This document shows, piece by piece, positions 3,216-45,419 of a stretch of DNA of 45,419 bases; positions within the stretch are counted from its first letter, which is position 1, and each line of letters starts with the position of its first letter. A program made the position numbers and the translations under genes. The stretch comes from a bacterium (GTDB lineage: Bacteria; UBA9089; UBA9088; JAGUXG01). The stretch lies in NCBI GenBank assembly GCA_043798435.1, contig JAZDOR010000128.1:1-45419 (forward strand). The letters run 5' to 3'. Below the pieces are notes generated by a model, which saw only the letters and a program-made list of their open reading frames with translations, did not search any database and was not told the origin of the DNA.

Positions 3216-3224
3216 TTTTTACCT

Positions 3225-3336
3225 TTGATAAAGATAAGTTTTGACTCCGTTAATAGATTTGCTCTCTTTGAAATTGGTTGTATCCATTAGTTTTTTATAA
3301 GTTTCCTCATCTATCCGTATCTCTTTGGCTTCAGAA
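3225..3336 (-). pseudogene. Orphan duplicate of the last ~37 codons of the cyclase gene (copy B of a 112-bp direct repeat)
   Basis: About 90% identical to 4108-4220. Translates as YSEAKEIRIDEETYKKLMDTTNFKESKSINGVKTYLYQR*, compared with the cyclase tail HSEPGEIRIGEETYKKLMDKTNFKEDKSIDGVKTYLYQND*. No upstream coding body. Confidence 0.8.
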
Positions 3337-3355
3337 TATCCCCCACCACATATTC

Positions 3356-4107: not shown

Positions 4108-4960
4108 TTTGATAAAGATAAGTTTTGACTCCGTCAATAGATTTATCCTCTTTGAAATTGGTTTTATCCATTAGCTTTTTATAGGTTTCCTCACCTATCC
4201 GTATCTCTCCAGGCTCAGAATGTTTTTGTAAATGCCCGGCGATGTCCATTACTTCACTTGTCCACTTTCCTTTCTCTTCAGCTTCATCTACAAGGCAAAC
4301 ACCAGTATTTATTCCAATCCTTACCATAATCGGCTTCTCCAACCTATTCCTTTCTTTGTTAAAATCACTTAATCCTTCCTGAATCTGGATTGCAGACTCA
4401 ACCGCCTTGTCAGGATTTTGAAAGGTGCAGAGTCCACCATCACCACTCCAGACTACCTCTCCATTATTCTCCTTCGCAATTCCTTCTACATGGTTATGAT
4501 ATTCATTGAAAGTGTATTTAATATCTAAAACATCTTTACCTTCTTTAATTACGGTTGAACCTGCCACATCAATAATTAAGAAGGTTATCTTCTTGTAAAA
4601 TTTTTCTTTTCTTCTGGCTTGCCAATAATCTTTATATTTAATTTCAGTCTTCGCAACTTGTTGTCCATCAATATACATGATTATTTCTTTATTTTTTAAA
4701 CTCCAAGTAACAGCAATCATGTGTCTTTGATTGGTGTCTAATAAAGAAACATCATGTTCAACATCAGTACGTCCTTTTCCTAAATAAACATGAAAGAATT
4801 TTAATCTATTATCACTATCTTTCACCATAAATATACCACCATTTGAAGGGCTGAGTTGAATTAGAGGAATTGTCTGACCATCATTAAATTGAACCTTACC
4901 CGCATTAATCCAAAAACTAATTGTACCTTCTTTTATATTATCCAACTTTTGATTATTCAT
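4100..4960 (-). CDS. LamG/ConA-like domain fused to a class III nucleotidyl cyclase catalytic domain
   Basis: N-half resembles Laminin_G_3 (GTISFWINAG...HMIAVTWS...IIMYIDGQQV). C-half has class III cyclase hallmarks (FLIIDVAGST, WSGDGGLCTF, VRIGINTGVCLV, DIAGHLQK..EPGEIRIGEETY). ATGA overlap with the upstream small ORF. Confidence 0.72.
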   Translation of the reverse strand: MNNQKLDNIKEGTISFWINAGKVQFNDGQTIPLIQLSPSNGGIFMVKDSDNRLKFFHVYLGKGRTDVEHDVSLLDTNQRHMIAVTWSLKNKEIIMYIDGQQVAKTEIKYKDYWQARRKEKFYKKITFLIIDVAGSTVIKEGKDVLDIKYTFNEYHNHVEGIAKENNGEVVWSGDGGLCTFQNPDKAVESAIQIQEGLSDFNKERNRLEKPIMVRIGINTGVCLVDEAEEKGKWTSEVMDIAGHLQKHSEPGEIRIGEETYKKLMDKTNFKEDKSIDGVKTYLYQND

Positions 4961-5395: not shown

Positions 5396-5743
5396 TTATA
5401 TTCTCCAAAATCCTAACCACTCACGCAAAGAATTTTCTAAGCTTTTAGCGTCTAAAGCAGATAGATTACCGACCTTTTTAATAATTAATCTTCTGTTTAC
5501 AGTATAAATCCCACGCTTAACTGCTGTCGCCACATTAAGTCCTGCATCAACCCAGTACATCAACACAAACTCACCAGGCAAGAGAGATATTATTTTGCTG
5601 GTTAAGGGAACTACAAAAACATCCTCAGAGATATGGGGAGCACTTACAACAACCGCTGGTCTAACCTTTGAAGTTGATAAATCTGCAAATGGATAATGGA
5701 CTAAAATCACATCACTTTTTGAGTAATTGTGCATATACATCAT
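5396..5743 (-). CDS. PemK/MazF-family type II toxin
   Basis: SDVILVHYPFADLSTSKVRPAVVVS...VVPLTS is typical of the MazF/PemK fold. The start is probably an internal Met (5743 or 5734) rather than the ORF-track start at 5767. Overlaps the antitoxin gene. Confidence 0.75.
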   Translation of the reverse strand: MMYMHNYSKSDVILVHYPFADLSTSKVRPAVVVSAPHISEDVFVVPLTSKIISLLPGEFVLMYWVDAGLNVATAVKRGIYTVNRRLIIKKVGNLSALDAKSLENSLREWLGFWRI

Positions 5744-5915
5744 CCTCTGGATTATCCCAAACAGCATCTAAAGAGACTTGACTTGCATTTTGCCAGAATT
5801 GCTGTTCTCTTCTATCAGGTAATAATGTTACTAAAACCTTTGTTCCATCAGGAATATCCATTTTTTCCAGAAGTTCTATTCTTTTGTCTTGGGTAACTGC
5901 CCATACAGTCTGCAT
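5712..5915 (-). CDS. Small antitoxin-like protein paired with the MazF-like toxin
   Basis: 67 aa directly upstream of and overlapping the toxin. N-terminal beta-rich segment (AVTQDKRIELLEKMDIPDGTKVLVTLL) resembles AbrB/SpoVT- or DUF104-type antitoxins. Confidence 0.55.
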   Translation of the reverse strand: MQTVWAVTQDKRIELLEKMDIPDGTKVLVTLLPDRREQQFWQNASQVSLDAVWDNPEDDVYAQLLKK

Positions 5916-6135: not shown

Positions 6136-9100
6136 ATGGGAGAGATATTAAGTAAGGCAGATGGGTTTGTTCCTGAAAGGCAAGAGACTGAAGAGGCTAT
6201 AGAGCCAGAAAGTGTTTTAGAAGAGAGTGAAGCCTTAGAGATTGAAAGACTCCTGTCAGAAATGGTCACTGTGGAAGAAGACCTTCCTGATGAGAATGAA
6301 GAAGAGGAAGAAGAGCCTGCCTATCCTGAAGAAGAGTTAGCCATAGAAGATTTACTGCTAAGACCTGAAGAAGGATTTTCTTTAGAAGATGAAGGATCGC
6401 TTACCGATGTTAAGTTATCAGGAGAAGAGTCATTAGAAACAGAAGAACCGCTACAGCCTGAAATCCCACAAGAGCCTGCAGAAGAGAGTATAGAAGATTT
6501 TTTGGGCGGTGAAGAGGCAATGCCTGAAGAACCGTTACAACCTGAAATCCAAGTAGAGACGCCTGCAGAAGAAAGCATGGAGGATATTTTGGGCAGTGAA
6601 GAAGAGACGCCTTTAGAGCTACCGCTACAACCTGAAATCCAGGTAGAGATACCCGCAGAAGAGAGCCTGGAAAATCTTTTGGGTGAAACGCCTTTAGAAT
6701 TGCCTGAAGAATCGTTACAGCCTGAAATCCAGGTAGAAGCACCTGTAGAAGAGAGTCTGGAGGATATTTTAGGCAGTGAGGAGGCAATGCCTGAAGAACC
6801 GCTACAGCCTGAAATCCAAGCAGAGGCACCCGCAGAAGAGAGTCTGGAGAATATTTTGGGTGAAATGCCTTTAGAGATACCAGAAGAACCGTTACAACCT
6901 GAAATCCAGATAGAAGCACCTGCAGAAGAGAGTCTGGAAGATCTTTTAGGTGAAACGCCTTTAGAGCTACCACTACAACCCGAAATCCAGGCAGAAACAC
7001 CCACAGAAGAGAGTCTGGAAGATCTTTTGGGTGAAGCGCCTTTAGAGTTGCCTGAAGAACCATTACAGCCTGAAATCCAAGCAGAGACATCCGCAGAAGA
7101 GAGCATAGAAGATCTTTGGGGTAGTGAAGAAGCAATGCCTGAAGAACCGCTACAACCTGAAATCCCACAAGAGCCAGCAGAAGAGAGCCTGGAAGATATT
7201 TTGGATGAAACGCCTTTAGAATTGCCTGAAGAACCGTTACAATCTGAAATCCAGGCAGAGACACCCGCAGAAGAGAGCCTGGAAGATCTTTTGGGTGAAA
7301 CGCCTTTAGAGTTACCAGAAGAACCGCTACAGCCTGAAATCCAGGCAGAGACATCCGCAGAAGAAAGTCTGGAGGATATTTTGGGTGGTGAAGAAGAGAC
7401 GCCTTTAGAGCTACCGCTACAGCCTGAAATCCAGGTAGAAACACCTGCAGAAGAGAGTCTGGAGGATATTTTGGGTGAAACGCCTTTAGAGTTACCAGAA
7501 GAACCGTTACAACCTGAAATCCAGGCAGAGACACCCGCAGAAGAGAGTCTGGAGGATATTTTGGGTGATGAGGAGGAAATGCCTTTAGATCTACCAGAAG
7601 AAGAATCCACCTTTCCTGAAAAAACAATGGAGGACTCATTAAAATCAGAAGAAGTATCTGCTATTGAACCACCTTTGGAAGGAGAGAGGATGGAGATGGC
7701 TGCTCTTCTTAGACCAGAGGAGAAAAAACAGCCCTCGAAAAAGAAAACCTTCTCTATAAAAAAGAGATATGTTGTTATTCCCATCATCATAGCTATAGCT
7801 GCTATTCCTGTCTGGCTTTTCTATTCAACAAAAAATACCTTAGAAAAAGGCTTACTCAAGGTAAGTGAAGGAAAGACAGAAGAGGCAGAGAAAAGCCTTG
7901 ATAAGGGTCTCCAATTTCTCATCTTCAAAAAGGAAAAGGCTTCTTGGTATCAAAGGTTTGGAGAGGAGTATAAGAAGATAGGCAGGTCTGACCTTGCCTC
8001 CAAAAAGTTTTCTGAAAGTTTAAGCATTTGTCCAACAGACAGAAAGATGCAGGATTATATATTAAATCCCATCATAGCCAGGAAGGAATATAAAGAGGTA
8101 GAGGAGATAGCAAACCATATTCTTGAAAAAGACCCGAGAAGTGTCTCTGCCCATATTGCTTTAGCCAAAGTAGCCCTTGCCAAAGAAAAGCCTGAAACAG
8201 CCATCAACTACCTGAAGAATGGTGCATTAAAGATAAAGATAGATGACATTCCATCGCTCTCTCTCCTGATGGAGGTCTATTTTGATGAGAAAAAGTATGC
8301 TGAGCTTATCAGCATCCATCGTCTTTGCATAGACACCCTTAAGATTAAGAAGCCACTCAACCCTAAAATGCTGACTAAGGCAGCAGAAGCCTTTATTTCT
8401 GACCAAAAGCTCAATATAGCTACACCTGTATTAGAAGAAGTGGTGAGGGGTTATCCTGAAGAGGTAGAGGCAAGGTATCTTTTGGCATCTGTCAGGGTAA
8501 AGGAAAAGAGAACAGAGGAGGCAAAGAAGGAGATTGCTGAGGTCTTCAAAAGGGATAGCAAACATCCATTGGCACATAACCTTCTTGGAAAAATACTGCG
8601 AGATGAAAAAGAGTATGCGGGTGCTCTCAAGCATTTCCTCGCAGCCGTAGAAAAAGATCCTAATTTAACAGAGGCTCACCTTTCCATAGCTGACCTATCC
8701 TATCTTCATTTTAATGACTATCTCTCAAGTATTAAGCATTATAACTCTGCTTTGACTGGAGGGCTTACCTCGGAAAAGACTCTTTATAGCTTAGGGGCAT
8801 CATACTATTTTAATGGAGAGTATGAAAAGTCGGCTAATATTTGGGGGCGTCTTGATAAATCTCCTGAGCTCCTCTGCAATATAGGAAATAGCCATTTGAG
8901 AAGCGGAAAACTTAAGGTAGCAGAAGGAGAATACAAAGAATCAGCCCAACTTTTCAAGGAGAAGCTAAGAAAGGAGAGGCTATCTCCATCTGATAGACAG
9001 AAAACCTACTCTTATTTGGCAGACACTTACAACAATATTGGGCTCATCTTAGAGCTTAAAGGAGAGACTGAAAGAGCTCAAGATGCCTACTTTGATGCTG

Positions 9101-9261
9101 TCAACACAGGAAAGCTGGCTAAGATTGAACACAGGGAAGGCTACCAGAACCTTATAAATCTACTGAAAGGCGAAAAAAATACAATATCCTTTGGCATTTC
9201 TGGCAAGATTGAGAAGGAATTGGTGAAAATAGGGCAGGAGGTAGGAGGTAGTAGTCATTAG
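6136..9261 (+). CDS. Membrane-anchored TPR protein with a very acidic N-terminal tandem-repeat region
   Basis: 13 repeats of about 30 aa (LQPEIQAETPAEESLEDILGETPLELPEEP). Basic stretch KKQPSKKKTFSIKKRY followed by a TM helix (VVIPIIIAIAAIPVWLFY). About 480 aa of TPR-like helical repeats. Confidence 0.8.
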   Translation: MGEILSKADGFVPERQETEEAIEPESVLEESEALEIERLLSEMVTVEEDLPDENEEEEEEPAYPEEELAIEDLLLRPEEGFSLEDEGSLTDVKLSGEESLETEEPLQPEIPQEPAEESIEDFLGGEEAMPEEPLQPEIQVETPAEESMEDILGSEEETPLELPLQPEIQVEIPAEESLENLLGETPLELPEESLQPEIQVEAPVEESLEDILGSEEAMPEEPLQPEIQAEAPAEESLENILGEMPLEIPEEPLQPEIQIEAPAEESLEDLLGETPLELPLQPEIQAETPTEESLEDLLGEAPLELPEEPLQPEIQAETSAEESIEDLWGSEEAMPEEPLQPEIPQEPAEESLEDILDETPLELPEEPLQSEIQAETPAEESLEDLLGETPLELPEEPLQPEIQAETSAEESLEDILGGEEETPLELPLQPEIQVETPAEESLEDILGETPLELPEEPLQPEIQAETPAEESLEDILGDEEEMPLDLPEEESTFPEKTMEDSLKSEEVSAIEPPLEGERMEMAALLRPEEKKQPSKKKTFSIKKRYVVIPIIIAIAAIPVWLFYSTKNTLEKGLLKVSEGKTEEAEKSLDKGLQFLIFKKEKASWYQRFGEEYKKIGRSDLASKKFSESLSICPTDRKMQDYILNPIIARKEYKEVEEIANHILEKDPRSVSAHIALAKVALAKEKPETAINYLKNGALKIKIDDIPSLSLLMEVYFDEKKYAELISIHRLCIDTLKIKKPLNPKMLTKAAEAFISDQKLNIATPVLEEVVRGYPEEVEARYLLASVRVKEKRTEEAKKEIAEVFKRDSKHPLAHNLLGKILRDEKEYAGALKHFLAAVEKDPNLTEAHLSIADLSYLHFNDYLSSIKHYNSALTGGLTSEKTLYSLGASYYFNGEYEKSANIWGRLDKSPELLCNIGNSHLRSGKLKVAEGEYKESAQLFKEKLRKERLSPSDRQKTYSYLADTYNNIGLILELKGETERAQDAYFDAVNTGKLAKIEHREGYQNLINLLKGEKNTISFGISGKIEKELVKIGQEVGGSSH
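6440..7605 (+). repeat. Coding tandem repeat, about 84-105 bp unit, 13 copies
   Basis: The motif ccgct/ttacaRcctgaaatccaRgYagaR recurs 13 times. Unit length varies through GSEEAMP and GGEEETPLELP variants. It generates long spurious antisense ORFs. Confidence 0.9.
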
Positions 9262-9290
9262 TCATTGGTCATTAGTCATTAGTCATTGGG
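9253..9290 (+). repeat. Heptamer microsatellite (tagtcat/tggtcat, 5 copies) spanning the stop codon of the TPR gene
   Basis: gtagtcattagtcattggtcattagtcattagtcattgg read directly. Confidence 0.8.
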
Positions 9291-9327: not shown

Positions 9328-9864
9328 ATGAAGCTACAGATAAAAAAATATGGTCATCCTATATTGAGAAAAATAGCAGAGCCAATCAAAGAGATTGATG
9401 GGGAGATAATAGGGTTTGCCTCTAATATGTGTGCGACTATAGCCTCTTTTAATGCTATAGGGCTTTCTGCAAATCAGGCTGGAAAGGCAAAAAGAATCTT
9501 TGTGGCAAAAAATGAAGAGAGGCTATTAGTCTTCATCAACCCTAAGATAATAAGCCAGACAGGTGCGGAAATAGCAACAGAGGGATGCCTTAGCTTCCCA
9601 GGGCTATTTGGTGAGATTGAGAGGGCAATAACGGTCGTGGTTAGTGCCATCAGCCTACAGGGAAAGGAGATTAAAATTATAGCCAGAGATCTTTTAGCCC
9701 GAGCCATCCAGCATGAAATAGACCACCTTGATGGAATCCTGTTTATTGACCGAGCAGATAAGAAAGAGAGAAAGAGGATGCTTTCACAGTGGAAAGAGAT
9801 AAAATGTAACCGTTCAGGTAGTATAAGATGGAGAAATGGAGAAAGAGGAGAATTGAAGAAATAG
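9328..9864 (+). CDS. def: Peptide deformylase
   Basis: The three PDF motifs are present (GLSANQAG, EGCLSFPG, QHEIDHLDG). The last ~19 codons (CNRSGSIRWRNGERGELKK) are read out of the adjacent repeat element. Confidence 0.92.
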   Translation: MKLQIKKYGHPILRKIAEPIKEIDGEIIGFASNMCATIASFNAIGLSANQAGKAKRIFVAKNEERLLVFINPKIISQTGAEIATEGCLSFPGLFGEIERAITVVVSAISLQGKEIKIIARDLLARAIQHEIDHLDGILFIDRADKKERKRMLSQWKEIKCNRSGSIRWRNGERGELKK

Positions 9865-11946: not shown

Positions 11947-11975
11947 AATATACCGAGAATAAATCAGGTTTCCAA
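11947..11975 (-). promoter_or_regulatory. Putative sigma70 promoter of the MeTr-like gene, formed by a solo class-2 terminus
   Basis: On the minus strand: TTGGAA (11970-11975), 17 nt (ACCTGATTTATTCTCGG), TATATT (11947-11952), 45 nt upstream of the ATG at 11901. Confidence 0.55.
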
Positions 11976-14734: not shown

Positions 14735-15045
14735 ATTGGAAATTAGAAATTGGGAAGAAAAGATTCTGCTTCTGTGCTATACCTAAAAGAAATTGGTTTA
14801 CAAAAAAGTAACTACTCAGGTTCAAGGATTAAAAAGTTCACGGTTCAAGGTTCACGGTTAATCCTCTTATTCTCTAACCTTGAACTTTGAACCTCAGAAC
14901 TATAAACGAATCAGGTTCAAGGTTCACGGTTAATCCTCTTATTCTCTAACCTTGAACTTTGAACCTCAGAACCATAAACGAACACAATTTTTGCAAACCT
15001 GATTTATTTAGGTATAATTTCAAATTTCTAATTTCAACTTCATCT
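14735..15045. repeat. Composite class-2 element: nested inverted repeats with a 72-bp internal tandem duplication
   Basis: Outer gaaattagaaatt / aatttctaatttc. Termini tatacctaaaagaaattggtttacaaaaaa (14778) and tttttgcaaacctgatttatttaggtata (to 15016). The ggttcaagg...ccttgaac hairpin is present twice (14842-14910, 14914-14982). Confidence 0.85.
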
Positions 15046-18401: not shown

Positions 18402-18565
18402 TATACCGAAAAGAAATTGGTTTACCAAAAAAAAGTAACTACTCAGGTTCAAGGGGCTAAAGGGTTCAAGGTTCACGGTTAATCCTCTTATTCTTTAACC
18501 TTGAACTGTGACCTCAGAACCATAAACGAACACAATTTTTGTAAACCTGATTTATTCTCGGTGTA
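18402..18565. repeat. Class-2 word-hairpin element (ggttcaagg core) with both termini
   Basis: tataccgaaaagaaattggtttaccaaaaaaaa ... ggttcaaggttcacggttaatcctcttattctttaaccttgaac ... tttttgtaaacctgatttattctcggtgta. On the minus strand the left terminus reads TTGGTA-17-TATAAC, 22 nt upstream of the ATG at 18377. Confidence 0.85.
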
Positions 18566-20055: not shown

Positions 20056-20973
20056 TCAATACTTGGTGGATAAGGAGACAAAGTAGGAATCTCCCAGAGA
20101 ATCTCCTGGTTGGTAGGCAAAGTCAAAGGAGAAGAGCCTGTGGTTTATGCCAAGACCTGCTGTAAGCCCAGAGCCTTCCTTCTGGGGGCCAGACCGGACA
20201 CCAAGCCTTATAGCAAAGGTCTTTTGAATAGTTGCTTCCAAGCCTGCTCCAACATAAGGTTTATTATCATTAGGCAGGGTTGCATCGGCAACAAAGATGA
20301 TGGGAAGTCTATCAAACTTATGAGATAAGCCTACTTTAGCACACAATGGAAGCGGGTCGCTATCCTTCTCAAACTTTATATTTGTGCCAATGTTCTTAAT
20401 GACTGCACCAAGGGTTGTATTTTTTATCCTTGGAAGATATAGACAGCCAATATCACAAGCAATGCCTGTAGCGTTGCTCTTGTCTATCTCTCCATAAATG
20501 AGCTTTGCTGAGGCTCCTACTGATAAATTCTTCTGGAGACGCATAGCCCCACCTACAGTAAATAGGCTATCAAAGGCTGTCCAGTTTCCCAAGCCTGTAA
20601 TTGGATTGCCACCGCTATCAATATCTGTCTTCTCTTCCTTGCCATATCCAAAATAGGAGAGAGAGATGCCATAGCTTCCATCCTTTCCCCTTGGAATTGT
20701 TGTCGCAATATGACTATAAGATAGACCATCAAACTCTTGAAATGGCTTGAGATACATAAAGGTTGCCTGTCTATCTTTTATCTGGGATAGGCCTGCTGGG
20801 TTCCAGTAAAGGGCATTGACATCATCAGCTAAACCAACAAAGGCTTCCCCCATTGCAGTTATCCTGGCACCCTGGCCTACCTTCAAAAAAGCCATAGCTG
20901 TCTTTCCCGGGTCATTGGCAAAACCTTCCCCCATCAACACACCCAAAACCAAAACTACCATCAGTCTTTTCAT
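20056..20973 (-). CDS. Outer-membrane beta-barrel protein, PorV/PorQ (UPF0164)-like, paralog of 2361-3215
   Basis: Signal peptide. GARITAMGEAFVGLADDVNALYWNPAGLSQ. C-terminal ...FVSLSTKY. Confidence 0.65.
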   Translation of the reverse strand: MKRLMVVLVLGVLMGEGFANDPGKTAMAFLKVGQGARITAMGEAFVGLADDVNALYWNPAGLSQIKDRQATFMYLKPFQEFDGLSYSHIATTIPRGKDGSYGISLSYFGYGKEEKTDIDSGGNPITGLGNWTAFDSLFTVGGAMRLQKNLSVGASAKLIYGEIDKSNATGIACDIGCLYLPRIKNTTLGAVIKNIGTNIKFEKDSDPLPLCAKVGLSHKFDRLPIIFVADATLPNDNKPYVGAGLEATIQKTFAIRLGVRSGPQKEGSGLTAGLGINHRLFSFDFAYQPGDSLGDSYFVSLSTKY

Positions 20974-20990: not shown

Positions 20991-21085
20991 TAGTTTAGAG
21001 TTTTTAGTTTAGAGTCATACGCATTTTCCTTACCTCTTAACTCTCTATATTAACTATACACTCTACACTATTAACTATACACTTA
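20991..21085. repeat. Word element built from tagtttagag and tatacac words
   Basis: tagtttagagtttttagtttagag ... taactatacactctacactattaactatacac. The same words occur at 5947-5963, 36031-36092 and in the tandem array at 45278-45419. Confidence 0.65.
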
Positions 21086-22002: not shown

Positions 22003-22108
22003 GTAACTACTTTAGGTTTAGGAGTTAAAGGGTTCAAGGTTCACGGTTAATCTCCTTACTCTCTAACCTTGAACCGTGAATCTCGGAACTGTGAACCTGA
22101 ATAGTTAC
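22003..22108. repeat. Word-hairpin core (ggttcaagg/ccttgaacc) flanked by gtaactac...atagttac
   Basis: gtaactactttaggtttaggagttaaagggttcaaggttcacggttaatctccttactctctaaccttgaaccgtgaatctcggaactgtgaacctgaatagttac. Related to the cores at 14842 and 18450. Confidence 0.8.
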
Positions 22109-22900: not shown

Positions 22901-23006
22901 AAGATAAGGAGAAGGGGAGAATTGGAGAGAATTCAGAATACAGAATTAAGAATATTCTGACTCCTATTAACCTTCTGAAGTTTCTCCATCTTCCCCTTTT
23001 CTCCTT
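22901..23006. repeat. Word hairpin using ggagaa/ttctcc and cagaata/tattctg words
   Basis: aagataaggagaaggggagaattggagagaattcagaatacagaattaagaatattctgactcc...tttctccatcttccccttttctcc. Confidence 0.6.
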
Positions 23007-23028
23007 TTATATTTACTTTAGCCTACCT

Positions 23029-23422: not shown

Positions 23423-23593
23423 GAGAAATAAAAAATTAGACACTGATATACACAGATGGTCACAGAAAAGATATTTAGACACTGATTTACACAGATACTC
23501 ACAGATAATTTTTTAATTCTTATCAGTGTAATCTGTGTTAATCTGTGTCAAAAATATTTTCTTTAGGGTTTTCGTTTTTCGGGTTTTCGTGTT
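23423..23593 (-). repeat. 172-bp cacagat/atctgtg element, left copy of a near-identical inverted pair
   Basis: The reverse complement differs from 27339-27510 at only 3 positions (2 substitutions, 1 single-base indel). Confidence 0.95.
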
Positions 23594-23639: not shown

Positions 23640-25883
23640 TTACCCTTCTATCGGCAGGCTTACCACAAACCTTGTGCCTACACCTACCTCGCTCTCTACC
23701 TCAAGCTTTCCAGAGTGCTCCTCAACAAATCTCAAGCAGACAGAAAGCCCAAGACCTATCCCCTTTGCCTTTACAGTATAGAATGGGTCAAATATCCTGG
23801 CCAAATTCTCCTTTTCTATCCCCGGGCCATTATCAGAGATACTCACCCTAACAAAATCCCCTTCTTTCTCACTTTTTACTTTTAACTTTTTACTTTTAAC
23901 TTCCTCCATCGCCTCTGTGGCATTTTTTATAAGATTAACAATCACCTGCTTCAGCCTTTCTGTATCACCCAGGATATTGGGCAATTCACCAAGCTCCTCC
24001 CTTACCTCTATCTCAGAAAGGGTATCTGGTGGTAGCTCATCTAAAGCCTCTTTGATGATATAATTCAGATCTACCTTGGTCTTCTTTAACTCAATAGGTC
24101 TTGAGATGTCAAGGAGGTCATTGATAAATCCTGTTGCCCTGAAAGTGGCGTTTTCCATACTATGAATAGTCTTTTGAGCCATATCATTCTCAGGGAGGAT
24201 CTCCTTAAGGAGATAGAGACCATTGGTTATAACCTGCAAGGGATTCCTCACCTCATGGGCAGCTTCTGCTGCAATTTGAGAAATGGTTGATAATCTCTCT
24301 GCATCTTTCAGCCTCTCTTCCATCCTTTTCTTTTCAGTGATATCCCGGAAGACCATAACTACGCCAAGTATATTGCCCTTTGCATCATAAATGGGTGCAC
24401 CGCTATCAGCGATTATCCGCTCCTGGCCATCTTTTCCAATGAGAAGTGTATTGTTGGCCAGGCCTACAATCATCCCAGAGCTAATCACCTTCTCTACAGG
24501 GTCCTCACACCTTTCTCTGGTCTGCTCATTAACGATATAAAAGACATCACTTGTATGCTTAGCAAGGGCATCCTTCTCTTTCCAGCCTGTCAATTCCTCA
24601 GCCACCTTGTTAAGCAGGACCACCAGCCCTTTTGTATTGGCAACAATGACACCATCGCCTATGCTCCGCAAAGTTACATCAAGCCGCTCCTTCTCCTCCT
24701 CAAACAGATTAGCCAACCCTCCAATCTGAAGAGAGACAGAGCTGATAGATTGAACAATGTCATGGCTCAGGATATTTATGGGCCTAAAAAACTCATCGTA
24801 ATCTGCTGCAGCAACTATAGACCACCTTGCCTCCTTTATGTTCAGGGGCATTGCATACTGAAACTTATCTATCACCTCACCTTTCATATTCATCCCCTGA
24901 TAGTAAGAGTAAAACTCATCTCCTTTTATTGCCCTGTCGTGCCAATCATAGAATCCGTGCAGGAATTCAGAGGGTCTATGCTCTTTTTTAAGCACATCCC
25001 TTTCTACATTTATCACCCTTTTATCAGGATGGAAGATTATCCTGCCTGTCTGGCGGTCAATTATGCCAATATAACCACCCTCTCCAACCTTCTGGGTGGC
25101 TAAGCTGATAAACCCTTCATTACTCTGCAAGCTGGGAAGGTCAATGGAGGTGTAATTGGCTAAATATATCTCTAATATAGCCTTTACATTTAGGACCTTC
25201 TCTTTCACAGACCTTATGGCTACTGCCTCCAGATTTTCCTTGAGCCTCTTAGCTACATCCCCTTCTAATCTGATAAGTGTTTCATAAAGTTTTTTGCTTA
25301 AGGTAGCCTCAGGCTCTCCCAGCCTCTTTATTAAGAGATATTGCCTTGCCAAAAATTTGGCTAAACTTGTATAAAACCACCTTTCTATGTTCTCATAAAG
25401 GAAGGAAAAGAATTCCCTCTCTGTCCACCCAAGTTTTTCAGAAAATAGAGAATAACATTCTGGGGTATATCTTGATAGCTTATCTGCGTCCTTGACAATG
25501 GCATCCTCTTTGCTGACAGGCTCTCTTCTCGTGTCATGCCACAATATAATCTCGGCAATCTCTTCTATCTCCTCCTTTGGTAAATTCAGGTCAGAGAGGA
25601 TCTTTTTGGCTATATTACTGCTCTCTATCTCGTGTTTGTGTCTCAATTCCACATCCTCTAATCTAAGGACAGGCTTCCTTACCCTTACCTCATCCTCGTG
25701 TGAGAAGATGTGCCAGCCTGTATCGTGCAGGATTGCCGCTGGAATGACTATCCTTTCATTACCTTCCTCTTCTTGGAGCAATCTCTTTGCCATCTCTAAG
25801 CTGGATAGAAGATGAACCAAATCTCTCTCATCCCGACAATACCCCTTAGCCTTCTCTAACATAGCCTCAAATAGTTTTTTCAT
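23640..25883 (-). CDS. Cytoplasmic multi-domain sensor histidine kinase (HD domain, Cache-like region, PAS, HisKA, HATPase_c)
   Basis: HD motifs (AAILHDTGW, WHDT, DADKLS). PAS (SIGDGVIVANTKG...FRDITEKK). H-box AAHEVRNPL. N/G boxes (LIKNATEA, ISDNGPGI, GIGLGLSV). No TM segment. Confidence 0.85.
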   Translation of the reverse strand: MKKLFEAMLEKAKGYCRDERDLVHLLSSLEMAKRLLQEEEGNERIVIPAAILHDTGWHIFSHEDEVRVRKPVLRLEDVELRHKHEIESSNIAKKILSDLNLPKEEIEEIAEIILWHDTRREPVSKEDAIVKDADKLSRYTPECYSLFSEKLGWTEREFFSFLYENIERWFYTSLAKFLARQYLLIKRLGEPEATLSKKLYETLIRLEGDVAKRLKENLEAVAIRSVKEKVLNVKAILEIYLANYTSIDLPSLQSNEGFISLATQKVGEGGYIGIIDRQTGRIIFHPDKRVINVERDVLKKEHRPSEFLHGFYDWHDRAIKGDEFYSYYQGMNMKGEVIDKFQYAMPLNIKEARWSIVAAADYDEFFRPINILSHDIVQSISSVSLQIGGLANLFEEEKERLDVTLRSIGDGVIVANTKGLVVLLNKVAEELTGWKEKDALAKHTSDVFYIVNEQTRERCEDPVEKVISSGMIVGLANNTLLIGKDGQERIIADSGAPIYDAKGNILGVVMVFRDITEKKRMEERLKDAERLSTISQIAAEAAHEVRNPLQVITNGLYLLKEILPENDMAQKTIHSMENATFRATGFINDLLDISRPIELKKTKVDLNYIIKEALDELPPDTLSEIEVREELGELPNILGDTERLKQVIVNLIKNATEAMEEVKSKKLKVKSEKEGDFVRVSISDNGPGIEKENLARIFDPFYTVKAKGIGLGLSVCLRFVEEHSGKLEVESEVGVGTRFVVSLPIEG

Positions 25884-27338: not shown

Positions 27339-27510
27339 AACACGAAAGCCCGAAAAAACGAAAACCCTAAAGAAGATATTTTTGACACAGATTAACACAG
27401 ATTACACTGATAAGAATTAAAAAATTATCTGTGAGTATCTGTGTAAATCAGTGTCTAAATATCTTTTCTGTGACCATCTGTGTATATCAGTGTCTAATTT
27501 TTTATTTCTC
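27339..27510 (+). repeat. 172-bp cacagat/atctgtg element, right copy of the inverted pair
   Basis: See 23423-23593. Lies between the two PEP-synthase-like genes. Confidence 0.95.
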
Positions 27511-36030: not shown

Positions 36031-36092
36031 TAGTGCATAGTTAATAGTTATTACCTTATACTAAACACTATACACTAAAAACTATACACTTG
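36031..36092. repeat. tatacac/ctaaac word spacer between the two tRNAs
   Basis: tagtgcatagttaatagttattaccttatactaaacactatacactaaaaactatacact. These words are the reverse complement of the 45278-45419 array unit. Confidence 0.6.
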
Positions 36093-36195: not shown

Positions 36196-36340
36196 GTAAT
36201 CGCTGCGGTAGTGTAATAAAAGGGGATATGGAGATTAAGGAGATAAGGGGATAAAATTTTGAATTAAAAATGAATTATCTCCATATCTTTTCTTATCTCC
36301 TTATCCCCTCACACTTTTGATGTATAGCCTGAACGGTTAC
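36196..36340 (-). repeat. Class-1 word-hairpin element (ggagataagg core), inverted paralog of 11998-12158
   Basis: gtaatcgctgcggtagtgtaa ... ggagattaaggagataagggg ... ccttatcccctcacacttttgatgtatagcctgaacggttac. Confidence 0.85.
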
Positions 36341-38945: not shown

Positions 38946-40115
38946 ATGAAAATATGGAAAAGTTTATCAGGAAAAATAGAAGGGAGTGTTATCACCTCCG
39001 GGATATTTGACGGCATTCATATTGGCCATCAAACCTTGATAAAGAAGACTGTAAAATCTGCCAAAAAAAGGGGTATTCCCTCTATCCTTCTCACCTTCCA
39101 TCCACATCCAAGGTCTGCTCTCTTTATCCTTGCCGAAAAGGAGAGAGAAAGGCTTATTGAAGAGCTTGGGATAGACATAATGCTCTACTTAGACTTTAAT
39201 GAGATAAAAGACCTTCAGCCAGAGAGGTTTGTCCAAGAGATTCTTATAGAAACCCTTGGTATGAAAGAGATATGGATAGGCTCCGACCATAGGTTTGGAA
39301 AAGCTCAGGAGGGAGATGTAGGGCTACTCCGTAAGCTCTCTGGCAGATATGATTTTGAGGTTTTCTGTATGAGTGATGTCATTTTAGAGAATGAAAGGGT
39401 GAGCAGCTCTAAGGTAAAAGAGCTTTTGGCTTCTGGCAGGATACAAGAAGCAGAAAGGCTTTTGGGAAGACCATACACTGTGAATCTTCCGGTAATAAAG
39501 GGTGCAGGCAGGGGAAAGGGAATGGGTGCCAAGACAGTAAATATGGACTGGCCAGACATTTTTCTCCCAAGGCTTGGGGTCTATGGTGTGAAGGTGAAAA
39601 TAGTCCACAGTCAACAGTCCACAGTCCACAGTGAAGAGGCAAAAATAGTCAATAGTCAACAGTCAATAGTCAATAGACAGCAGAATACAGAATACAGAAT
39701 ACAGAATACAGAATACAGTAAAGAAGAGAGTCAACAGTCAACGGTCAACAGTCCACAGTCAACGGTCAATAGTAAAGAAAAGGAGACTATGGACAATGGA
39801 CTATGGACTATGGACAATTTTGATGGAGCTGAGCTTGATGGGATAGGAAACCTTGGAAGAAGACCCACATTCTCTGAAAACGAGCTCCTCTTTGAGGTTC
39901 ATATCTTCGGGTTTTCTGGAAATCTTTATGGAAAAAACCTTTCTGTCCAATTTTTAGAGTGGATACGGGATGAGATAAGGTTTTCCAGCAAAGAAGCCCT
40001 CTCTGCCCAGATCAAGAAGGATATAGAAAAACTTGCCAGAAGAAGGGGTGATATAGTATCCTATGGGGGTTGCGCCTGTGGCTCAATGGAAGAGCAACGG
40101 ACTTCTAATCCGTAG
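38946..40115 (+). CDS. ribF: Bifunctional riboflavin kinase / FMN adenylyltransferase carrying a 73-codon repeat-derived insertion
   Basis: FAD-synthetase half (GIFDGIHIGHQ, LTFHPHP). Kinase half (GRPYTV...G.GRGKGMG..T.N...GVYGV ... GNLGRRPTF...FEVHIF.F.G.LYG..L.V.F...IR.E.RF). Interrupted at 39600-39818. The 3' end overlaps tRNA-Arg. Confidence 0.88.
   Translation: MKIWKSLSGKIEGSVITSGIFDGIHIGHQTLIKKTVKSAKKRGIPSILLTFHPHPRSALFILAEKERERLIEELGIDIMLYLDFNEIKDLQPERFVQEILIETLGMKEIWIGSDHRFGKAQEGDVGLLRKLSGRYDFEVFCMSDVILENERVSSSKVKELLASGRIQEAERLLGRPYTVNLPVIKGAGRGKGMGAKTVNMDWPDIFLPRLGVYGVKVKIVHSQQSTVHSEEAKIVNSQQSIVNRQQNTEYRIQNTEYSKEESQQSTVNSPQSTVNSKEKETMDNGLWTMDNFDGAELDGIGNLGRRPTFSENELLFEVHIFGFSGNLYGKNLSVQFLEWIRDEIRFSSKEALSAQIKKDIEKLARRRGDIVSYGGCACGSMEEQRTSNP
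39600..39818 (+). repeat. In-frame word-repeat insertion inside ribF
   Basis: agtccacagtc / atagtcaatagtc words, then cagaata x5, then agtcaacRgtc words, then gactatggac words (approximate reverse complement of gtccacagtc). 219 bp = 73 codons with no stop. Encodes VHSQQSTVHS...NTEYRIQNTEY...MDNGLWTMDN. Confidence 0.85.
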
Positions 40116-40146
40116 GTTGACCGTTCGAGTCGGTCCAGGCGTACCA
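40072..40146 (+). tRNA. tRNA-Arg (TCT) with encoded CCA
   Basis: Acceptor GCGCCTG/CAGGCGT, D arm GCTCAATGGAAGAGC, anticodon arm ACGGA-CTTCTAA-TCCGT, T arm GACCGTTCGAGTCGGTC, discriminator A plus CCA. Confidence 0.88.
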
Positions 40147-42009: not shown

Positions 42010-42043
42010 CTTTACCTCCCATATGCAATCTGATAGATAGCTC

Positions 42044-42155
42044 GATATAAATAGAACACGGATAACGCTGATGAAATGGATAAACACGGATTTTTATATT
42101 TTAATCTGTGTAAATTCGTAGTATCCGTGTCATCTGCGTGCTATTATCTCTTATT
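42044..42155. repeat. 112-bp cacggata/tatccgtg element upstream of hemB
   Basis: gatataaatagaacacggataacgctgatgaaatggataaacacggatttttatattttaatctgtgtaaattcgtagtatccgtgtcatctgcgtgctattatctcttatt. Paralogs at 43336-43445 and 43461-43571. Confidence 0.85.
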
Positions 42156-43294: not shown

Positions 43295-43335
43295 AATTTG
43301 TAAAATTATATATGTAATCCGATATAGATAACTTA

Positions 43336-43571
43336 ACATAAATAGCACACGGATAACGCTGATGAAACGGATATTCACGGATTTTTATATTTCATCTGTG
43401 TCCATCCATAGTATCCGTGTCATCCAAAGTGCTATTCTATTTTAAGCCATCATTGAAGTTGACATAAATAGCACACGGATAACGCTGATGAAACGGATAT
43501 TCACGGATTTTTATATTTCATCTGTGTCCATCCATAGTATCCGTGTCATCTGCGTGCTATTATCTCTTATT
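43336..43571. repeat. Two tandem copies of the cacggata/tatccgtg element upstream of the radical SAM gene
   Basis: Copies at 43336-43445 and 43461-43571 are nearly identical over about 95 bp (acataaatagcacacggataacgctgatgaaacggatattcacggatttttatatttcatctgtgtccatccatagtatccgtgtcat). Confidence 0.9.
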
Positions 43572-45275: not shown

Positions 45276-45277
45276 GA

Positions 45278-45419
45278 TAGTTTAGAGTGTATAGTTTAGA
45301 GTGTATAGTTTAGAGTGTATAGTTTAGAGTGTATAGTTTAGAGTGTATAGTTTAGAGTGTATAGTTTAGAGTGTATAGTTTAGAGTGTATAGTTTAGAGT
45401 GTATAGTTTAGAGTGTATA
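45278..45419. repeat. 14-bp tandem array (tagtttagagtgta), about 10 copies, running off the window edge
   Basis: Perfect 14-nt periodicity read directly from 45278 to the end of the window. Begins 2 nt upstream of the PBP start codon. Confidence 0.95.

Follow-up and report, generated by a model that had tools for sequence, protein, structure and literature searches.

An in-frame insert of heptanucleotide arrays in the riboflavin kinase domain of a bacterial RibF

The ribF locus and the architecture of its insert

The window analysed here is one whole contig (JAZDOR010000128.1; 45,419 nucleotides) of an NCBI metagenome-assembled genome, and its ribF gene encodes a bifunctional riboflavin kinase / FMN adenylyltransferase that carries 73 additional residues within its kinase half. 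The protein is a type I bifunctional FAD synthetase, with N-terminal FMN adenylyltransferase (FMNAT) and C-terminal riboflavin kinase (RFK) modules that contain the conserved motifs, and it matches the solved structure PDB 2x0k at 4e-39. The FMNAT domain is uninterrupted. The RFK domain is split by the insert, with a Pfam Flavokinase match of 191 residues stretched across profile positions 1-120, and in PDB alignments the matches to the Corynebacterium ammoniagenes and Thermotoga maritima FAD synthetases stop at about residue 222 and resume at about residue 300. Among the 35 open reading frames (ORFs) scanned in the window, RibF is the sole one with a visibly inflated Pfam domain span. The coordinates of these features are collected in Table 1.

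Relative to uninserted orthologues, in which the corresponding segment reads GVKV-GL-DG, the window sequence reads GVKV-K(73 residues)F-DG, and at the DNA level the insert takes the place of GGATTG in the empty allele. The 219 nucleotides are bounded by GGTGTGAAGGTGAAA on one side and by TTTGATGGAGCT on the other. Across the junctions the protein runs from GVYGVKVK through IVHSQQ...TMDN to FDGAELDGIGNLGRRPTF, and the encoded peptide, part of which is SQQSTVNSPQSTVNSK, is rich in Q, S, T, N, K and E. The initial annotation of this DNA had described a stop-free, in-frame insert of 73 codons in ribF; its coordinates and translation agree with those obtained here, and every repeat word that it quoted is found in the insert. 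Its statement that the flanking RibF motifs are intact also holds, as the PTAN-type segment, the PTF motif and the catalytic glutamate are all kept, with the invariant columns T197, N199, G304, P307 and E317 and the near-invariant T308 and F309 retained. At the other end of the gene, the last ~26 residues of the ORF (ARRRGDIVSYGGCACGSMEEQRTSNP), at the overlap with a tRNA gene, are unmatched in orthologues. A gene for an AAA_15/AAA_21 (AbiEii/OLD-like) ATPase lies directly 5' of ribF, and the neighbourhood of ribF is different in each of three related species.

About 85% of the 73 codons of the insert lie in tandem arrays of period 7, which TRF resolves as head-to-tail runs of 4.4-9.9 copies. 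These are organised as three tandem modules, each built of AAAATAG, four to six heptamers and a purine spacer (AGTRAAGARRAG), followed by an inverted array. Where module 1 passes into module 2, the sequence AGTGAAGAGGCAAAAATAGTC, made up of the closing spacer of the one and the beginning of the other, is closely similar to GTGAAGGTGAAAATAGTC, the host flank with the start of the insert. Since this junction mimics the host flank, the duplication unit appears to have taken in ribF sequence, which argues for duplication in place and not for repeated transposition. In module 2, the single copy of the AATAGTC array that would place TAG in frame reads CAG instead (position 39660). The spacer of module 3 and the sequence that follows it are shared with a shorter insert in a related contig (vide infra).

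The palindromy of the insert resides in its ends. The left end, AAAATAGTCCACAGTCAACAGTCCACAGTCCACAGT (39597-39632), and the inverted sequence at 39785-39822 form a terminal stem of about 35 base pairs, which includes AAAAT/ATTTT at its extremities (39597-39822) and has 7 mismatches in about 36 arm positions. The predicted RNA fold reaches -43.5 kcal/mol (z -2.7) on the sense strand and -65 kcal/mol (z -6.4) on the antisense strand; the latter is stronger because four C/T transitions in the arms give C.A oppositions in the sense strand and G.U pairs in the antisense strand. A coding cause for these transitions is plausible, in that CCATAGT would make an in-frame TAG and CCACAGT would not. No Rfam family was matched within or near the insert, and a scan for promoters and terminators gave no signal exceeding chance.

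Table 1. Coordinates of the ribF gene, its insert and the associated heptamer arrays (window positions, unless a related contig is named)
Feature	Position	Strand	Basis or remark
ribF ORF, bifunctional riboflavin kinase / FMN adenylyltransferase, 389 residues	38946..40115	+	Pfam, PDB match, Foldseek
FMN adenylyltransferase (FAD_syn) domain, residues 12-155, uninterrupted	38979..39410	+	Pfam, 3.4e-40
Riboflavin kinase (Flavokinase) domain, residues 173-363, split by the insert	39462..40034	+	Pfam, 2.3e-31
Net 219-nucleotide (73-codon) in-frame insert	39600..39818	+	Comparison with uninserted orthologues
Module 1: AAAATAG + (AGTCCAC/AGTCAAC) x ~4.5 + spacer AGTGAAGAGGCAAAA	39597..39644	+	
Module 2: AAAATAG + (AATAGTC) x4.7 + (CAGAATA) x5.4 + spacer AGTAAAGAAGAG	39641..39728	+	
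Module 3: (AGTCAAC/GGTCAAC/AGTCCAC) x6.4 + spacer AGTAAAGAAAAGGAG	39729..39784	+	
Inverted array (GACTATG/GACAATG) x4.4 + TTTT	39785..39822	+	Right stem arm
AGTCCAC/AGTCAAC array	39602-39673		TRF, period 7
AATAGTC array	39644-39676		TRF, period 7
CAGAATA x5.4 array, 100% matches	39681-39718		TRF, period 7
AGTCAAC x6.4 array	39729-39773		TRF, period 7
GACTATG x4.4 array	39785-39815		TRF, period 7
tRNA-Arg(TCT)	40072..40146	+	Overlaps the final 44 nucleotides of the ribF ORF (40072-40115)
Intergenic array hairpin	14826-14905		z -6.8
Intergenic array hairpin	22905-23012		z -4.5
Intergenic array hairpin	36212-36312		z -6.1
RibF loop array, Nitrospirota contig L138	3150-3302		
RibF loop array, Nitrospirota contig L141	10679-10837		
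RibF loop array, Nitrospirota contig L142	10679-10801		

Open frame, independent assemblies and loop position

The insert contains no stop codon in the ribF frame, and each of the other five frames contains three to six. When the insert is shuffled by dinucleotides, 73 of 5000 shuffles (1.5%) leave a given frame open, as do 3% of the intergenic 219-mers of the window. The same 219-nucleotide insert, with the same array copy numbers, is present in two contigs from other projects, L084 (ENA ERZ928008) and L085 (JGI Ga0180007). The only difference within the insert is an A>G change at 39781 (K>R), and the flanks of the two contigs diverge from the window by 1.3-1.8%. Because assemblies from other projects carry the same insert within diverged flanks, the insert is real and not an artefact of assembly.

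Downstream of the insert, the window and L085 differ at 15 positions, with 11 synonymous and four non-synonymous changes, and by this comparison ribF is under purifying selection. As judged from sequence, then, the insert is read through in frame within a gene that selection maintains. The suggestion in the initial annotation that this ribF is probably still functional is consistent with the intact motifs, the open frame and the mostly synonymous downstream changes. Mis-assembly of repeats, or decay of ribF to a pseudogene with an intact paralogue as backup, is a highly improbable alternative. Repeats do break assemblies in this material, as the window contig ends in an array of 14-mers and a related contig, L002, has a scaffold gap beside the site; however, three independent assemblies agree on the insert with a single substitution between them, the gene keeps an open frame and intact motifs, and the downstream substitutions are mostly synonymous. 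Both the mis-assembly and the pseudogene readings were rejected on the agreement of the three assemblies and the purifying selection downstream.

An AlphaFold2 model of RibF, built from a 62-sequence alignment, has a mean pLDDT of 84.9, with both enzyme modules above 90 and the residues of the insert (~221-291) at 30-65. In the model, strands 211-220 and 296-305 flank the insert, which is placed at a beta-hairpin tip, and the segment at this site has one modal length in 44 of the 62 diverse RibF sequences. Foldseek comparison of the model with the solved FAD synthetases 2x0k and 1mrz gives target-normalised TM values of 0.82-0.87. The insert is thus modelled as a low-confidence surface loop on an intact enzyme core, in line with the surface-loop placement foreseen in the initial annotation. 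A candidate equivalence of the insertion site with the L4c-FlapII loop was dropped: in the C. ammoniagenes FAD synthetase this flap comprises residues ~259-264 (PTF...loop), and it is downstream of the insertion point, which precedes the PTF motif (PMC5428420).

Inserts at the same site in related RibF proteins

The closest RibF homologues come from uncultured bacteria, and the nearest named relative, at 82% identity, is a protein labelled Candidatus Desantisbacteria (P0008). A search of genome contigs with RibF gave matches of at most 40% identity among those listed, with no Desantisbacteria genome among them. Two of the close relatives have shorter inserts at the same codon. The L001 contig (protein P0002) has a net insert of 57 nucleotides, AAAATAGGCAGT(AGTCAATG GTCAATG GTCAATG)GTAAAGAAAAGGAGACTATGAACAATTTT, and the L003 contig (P0004) has a net 33-nucleotide run of degenerate heptamers, AAAATAGTCAACGATCAATGGAGTATAGACAATTTC. 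The ends are common to the window, L001 and L003 inserts, and the core GTAAAGAAAAGGAGACTATGRACAAT is common to the window and L001; given these shared ends and core, the three inserts are homologous. The proteins P0003 and P0005-P0008, as well as more distant RibFs, are free of an insert at this codon. The initial annotation had reasoned that a comparable low-complexity segment in close orthologues without the intergenic repeats would undermine its reading, and this is not the pattern found, as at least one of the relatives with a smaller segment, L003, has an intergenic heptamer array in addition to its insert.

The insert-bearing RibFs do not form a clean clade, as pairwise identities group P0003 and P0008 with P0002, a pattern that requires loss, recombination or repeated gain. 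The L002 contig, which comes from a Desantisbacteria MAG and is insert-free, matches L001 at ~99.5% identity across 4.6 kb and differs from it locally as GLDGKEL versus NFDGEWL. This difference is a within-species polymorphism, possibly exchanged by recombination. L002 also contains a run of N at 2670-2769 flanked by a 55-nucleotide duplication directly after the insertion site, which splits ribF into two called genes; the gap and the duplication are probably a scaffolding artefact of co-existing alleles.

A second set of expanded loops was found at a much greater distance. A RibF with 34% identity to that of the window, P0084, has a 30-residue insert in the same loop, encoded on L138 by a near-perfect hairpin of the form (ACAGAGR)n - A8 - (YCTCTGT)n (z -6.7 and -8.1), and its relatives are Nitrospirota (Thermodesulfovibrionales, Dissulfurispiraceae). 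Across 105 Nitrospirota sequences the RibF loop ranges from 21 to 81 residues and has the base length in just 19, and outside the loop the protein keeps a constant length (293 residues for 65 of the 105). The loops of L141 and L142 likewise consist of heptamer arrays with inverted partners (ACTCGTC, GTTACTC), and in L141 the ACGAGTG heptamer occurs both in the ribF insert and as an array in a nearby spacer. The AATAGTC unit is common to the window insert and L138. Other housekeeping genes on these contigs carry in-frame heptamer arrays too. The L138 coaE gene (1813-2433) has an in-frame array insert of 16-23 residues, and the C-terminus and stop codon of its product derive from a (CAATAGT)n array; L141 has arrays within thiD (8612-8638) and other ORFs (6858-6931, 20876-20905). 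No literature linking heptamer repeats to Nitrospirota or Desantisbacteria was found. Repeats of a similar kind have colonised the same RibF loop independently in Nitrospirota.

In three groups of Nitrospirota, homologous loops differ by exactly seven residues, that is, 21 nucleotides or three heptamers, which is the step expected where the reading frame filters slippage of the arrays. The same regularity bears on whether the insert is translated at all. Its removal from the mRNA, or a bypass by the ribosome, could be imagined from the long hairpin, which would juxtapose the two ends of the insert. However, such removal would not require every allele to be a multiple of three and free of stop codons, as those of 33, 57 and 219 nucleotides and the seven-residue Nitrospirota steps are, and no intron or other RNA family was matched, so that this is the least credible of the alternatives considered.

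The recurrence of the expansion also raises the question of whether the insert is selected for a function, either as an RNA or DNA hairpin that regulates ribF (through stability, antisense effects or pausing) or as a disordered protein loop that modulates the assembly or activity of the FAD synthetase. In keeping with this, the same loop is expanded in 86 of the 105 Nitrospirota RibFs and in three Desantisbacteria-like lineages, the antisense strand of the window insert folds very stably, and the insert is conserved across three samples. Among relatives, however, the loop varies freely in sequence, length and foldability, and some alleles are insert-free; arrays in CoaE and other genes would fit a general tolerance; and the Rfam, promoter and terminator searches of the insert gave nothing beyond chance. 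Selection for function is on balance an improbable explanation.

Origin of the insert, known repeat systems and other features of the window

Arrays of period 7 characterise this genome: the 45-kb window contains 14 of them, compared with 20 in 883 kb of unrelated loci, and among periods 5-12 only 7 is enriched, the trivial period 6 aside, with no arrays of periods 5 or 8-12 in the window. Ten further arrays in the window have different units, and seven of these are intergenic. The intergenic elements share the succession of array, loop and inverted array, with three significant hairpins (Table 1), and CAGAATA-like arrays recur in spacers at 22921 and 30858. The initial annotation had described the insert as made entirely of intergenic-type words. 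That description is overstated: the CAGAATA-like arrays aside, the exact words of the insert are not enriched in the intergenic relative to the coding DNA of the window, and what the two have in common is the period-7 array architecture.

Several further arrays were observed in the window. A dispersed hairpin family of the form (GGTTCAA/GGTTCAC)n - loop - (TTGAACC)n occurs at 14842-14982, 18463-18531 and 22031-22099, in four copies, two of them in tandem with a spacing of 72 nucleotides and 98-99% identity. The contig ends within a perfect (ATAGTTTAGAGTGT) x10 array of 14-mers (45277-45419), from which it is evident that repeats break the assembly, and related 14-mer and 7-mer arrays lie in spacers in both orientations (20991, 21048-21083, 36057-36090, 5933). 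Period-7 or short-repeat arrays touch ORFs at 2055-2089, 23869-23902, 9233-9290 and 9822-9864; one of these, (GAATCGC)5, is in the linker that follows a PEGA domain, and another falls within the HATPase region of a histidine kinase. For a 1041-residue TPR protein the stop codon comes from a TAGTCAT array, and the C-terminus of a peptide deformylase runs into a repeat hairpin.

The explanation that probably best accounts for the ribF insert is that a block of heptamer arrays, similar to the STRR repeats discussed below, with inverted terminal arrays and of the same hairpin-forming type that occupies the intergenic spacers of this genome, became established at a permissive hairpin tip of RibF and grew in place. 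The graded homologous inserts, together with a triplicated module that copies the host flank, indicate growth in place. The process would have begun with an insert of about 30-60 nucleotides, bounded by AAAATAG...GACAATTT, in an ancestor common to the sister species. In the window lineage, duplication of the module (AAAATAG, heptamer array and AGTRAAGARRAG) would then have extended it to 219 nucleotides, with replication slippage or template switching inside the arrays adding to the growth. As ribF is essential, only net variants that are multiples of three and free of stops would have survived. The block would be transcribed and translated as a 73-residue, probably disordered loop that projects off the enzyme surface and is presumably tolerated rather than required.

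The main competitor, a one-step insertion of a non-autonomous mobile element (a MITE, a REPIN or an RPE-like element) that also populates intergenic DNA, is unlikely. It would explain the terminal inverted repeats of ~35 nucleotides, the presence and absence of the insert in the near-identical L001 and L002, the occurrence of ACGAGTG in both the ribF insert and a nearby spacer of L141, the intergenic CAGAATA-like arrays of the window, and the sharing of AATAGTC with L138. However, the homologous inserts at the one codon are graded in size, the internal modules copy host flank, and the hairpin of the window insert has no significant counterpart in the short alleles. Neither the element nor its AGTCAAC/AGTCCAC words recur elsewhere in the 45-kb window, no transposase or RAYT is encoded among its 35 ORFs, and by eye no target-site duplication could be recognised, the flanks GTGAAGGTR and TTYGAYGGA being without a direct repeat. 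A protein search with a 75-residue insert peptide returned no matches, and it missed RibF itself as well, for which the low-complexity words are perhaps to blame. The mobile origin that the initial annotation drew from the intergenic repeats is accordingly not upheld: a one-step insertion of a mobile element is possible for the original small insert and is not supported for the 219-nucleotide block.

Several observations weigh against growth in place as the full account. The search for copies spanned 45 kb of the genome, and copies of the AGTCAAC element may lie elsewhere. The presence or absence of the insert in L001 and L002 is accompanied by substitutions in the flank (DGEW versus DGKE), so that recombination between alleles, and not a local gain or loss, may be responsible. 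No significant fold was obtained for the short inserts of L001 and L003, which makes the long stem specific to the window lineage. Finally, array copy numbers are the same in three assemblies, and slippage at present is therefore not fast.

A broader and more doubtful proposal is that the RibF hairpin tip is a recurrent, specific site of landing or expansion for heptamer-array hairpins in at least two phyla. If true, this site would span Desantisbacteria-like bacteria and Nitrospirota of the Thermodesulfovibrionia type, and it would imply either an unrecognised targeted or self-propagating mechanism, in the form of a selfish element of a new class, with template switching in place of a transposase as its means of spread, or a selected role of the hairpin or loop in flavin-cofactor synthesis.

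Among known systems, the Rickettsia palindromic elements (RPEs) were named as the closest precedent in the initial annotation. As they are summarised in PMC10969869 after Ogata et al. 2000 and 2002, RPEs resemble the ribF insert as palindromic repeat DNA that lies in frame in conserved housekeeping genes, is compatible with the fold, and adds a surface peptide to a gene that still functions, although in the present case translation and function are deduced from sequence. The ~35-bp stem, the open frame and the loop on an intact core all fit this description, and the analogy stands to the extent that both are palindromic repeats which the gene of a conserved enzyme tolerates in frame. It fails on copy family and host. 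In the same summary RPEs form families of ~100-150 bp with a conserved consensus and peptide, many copies and a known distribution in Rickettsia, whereas the RibF insert consists of heterogeneous 7-nucleotide arrays, is present once in the 45-kb window, is graded in size among relatives and was apparently duplicated in place, and its nearest named RibF relative is Candidatus Desantisbacteria and not a member of the Rickettsiales.

By composition, the insert belongs with the heptanucleotide long simple sequence repeats (SSRs), with head-to-tail 7-nucleotide arrays of several units that are dispersed and mainly intergenic. The cyanobacterial STRR heptanucleotide repeats, reportedly described by Mazel and colleagues in 1990, are of this kind, and their units are presumably CCCCAGT, TTGGTCA and CAACAGT. 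AGTCAAC is a rotation of CAACAGT, which we take to be the STRR3 unit, and the (CAATGAC)n of L138 and L141 would be the rotated complement of TTGGTCA, if that unit is as we assume. Like the STRRs, the arrays described here are tandem 7-nucleotide units with many different units per genome, dispersed and mostly intergenic. They differ in their host phyla (Desantisbacteria-like bacteria and Nitrospirota), in the combination of arrays and inverted arrays into long hairpins, and in their in-frame position within the catalytic domain of an essential enzyme. For long heptanucleotide SSRs in general, the reference is Mrazek et al. 2007, as cited in PMC4679880.

The TAACTGA direct repeats of marine Beggiatoaceae and some cyanobacteria (MacGregor 2015, PMC4679880) are likewise heptamers that are plentiful in intergenic DNA and occasionally lie in or overlap ORFs, with stop codons constraining their orientation and frame and with possible mobility discussed. 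They consist of one unit, which has stops in every forward frame, are found mostly just 5' of start codons, and have a proposed regulatory role (PMC4679880), whereas the RibF insert contains many stop-free units, chosen or mutated, in an internal loop of a conserved domain and with hairpin symmetry. REP, REPIN and MITE sequences share with the insert the short, hairpin-forming, non-coding repeats dispersed in intergenic DNA, and MITEs occasionally yield in-frame fusions (PMC10969869). The insert has terminal inverted repeats, but its arms are tandem arrays and not one unique palindrome. It shows no conserved head motif, inspection of the flanks by eye gave no target duplication or insertion motif, and the window has neither dispersed copies of the element nor a RAYT or transposase gene. 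Contingency SSRs are also slippage-prone tandem repeats within ORFs, with a unit that is not a multiple of three, and their frameshifts turn surface or virulence genes on and off. Here, in contrast, the gene encodes an essential enzyme, copy numbers are fixed in three samples, every allele is in frame and only frame-preserving (21-nucleotide) changes were seen, so that the locus does not behave as a phase-variable one.

The RibF inserts would extend selfish repeat DNA in protein-coding genes beyond Rickettsia to free-living uncultured phyla, and with a different kind of repeat, 7-nucleotide tandem arrays arranged as hairpins. What they add is a stepwise allelic series (0, 33, 57 and 219 nucleotides, with Nitrospirota loops in steps of 21) and a candidate hot spot across phyla. 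They may serve as a natural system for the persistence and growth of non-triplet microsatellites in essential genes under a frame filter, for the origin of disordered protein segments and for the mapping of permissive enzyme loops. Inserts of this kind also have practical consequences: they inflate domain spans, interrupt assemblies and can lead annotation astray, and the hypervariable RibF loop could act as a strain marker in these lineages.

The window also contains repeats of other kinds. An inverted repeat of 157 nucleotides, 99% complementary (23423-23579 and 27354-27510), surrounds a 3.8-kb segment with an HD-PAS histidine kinase and a PPDK_N-domain gene; this segment could be invertible or composite. 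A conserved motif of ~30 nucleotides, TATACCGAGAATAAATCAGGTTTCCAAAAA, is found at 11949, 14778, 18402, 29475, 32338 and 33678, and inverted at 18536 and 29580. Its complement resembles a promoter with -35 TTG.AA and -10 TATA elements, and it lies upstream of many minus-strand genes, among them nusA, the gene for a PEP-utilising enzyme and a HEAT-repeat gene. The N-terminal half of the 1041-residue TPR protein contains ~13 copies of a 90-nucleotide repeat (30 residues, acidic and proline-rich; 6442-7584). A 95-nucleotide repeat rich in CACGGATA/ATCCGTG words (42039-42133, 43330-43424 and 43456-43550; two copies 98% identical) is located around a radical-SAM/SPASM gene and hemB. A 114-nucleotide direct repeat (89% identity; 3224-3337 and 4108-4221) brackets a HEPN / nucleotidyltransferase pair, and a MazF-like toxin gene is present at 5396-5767.

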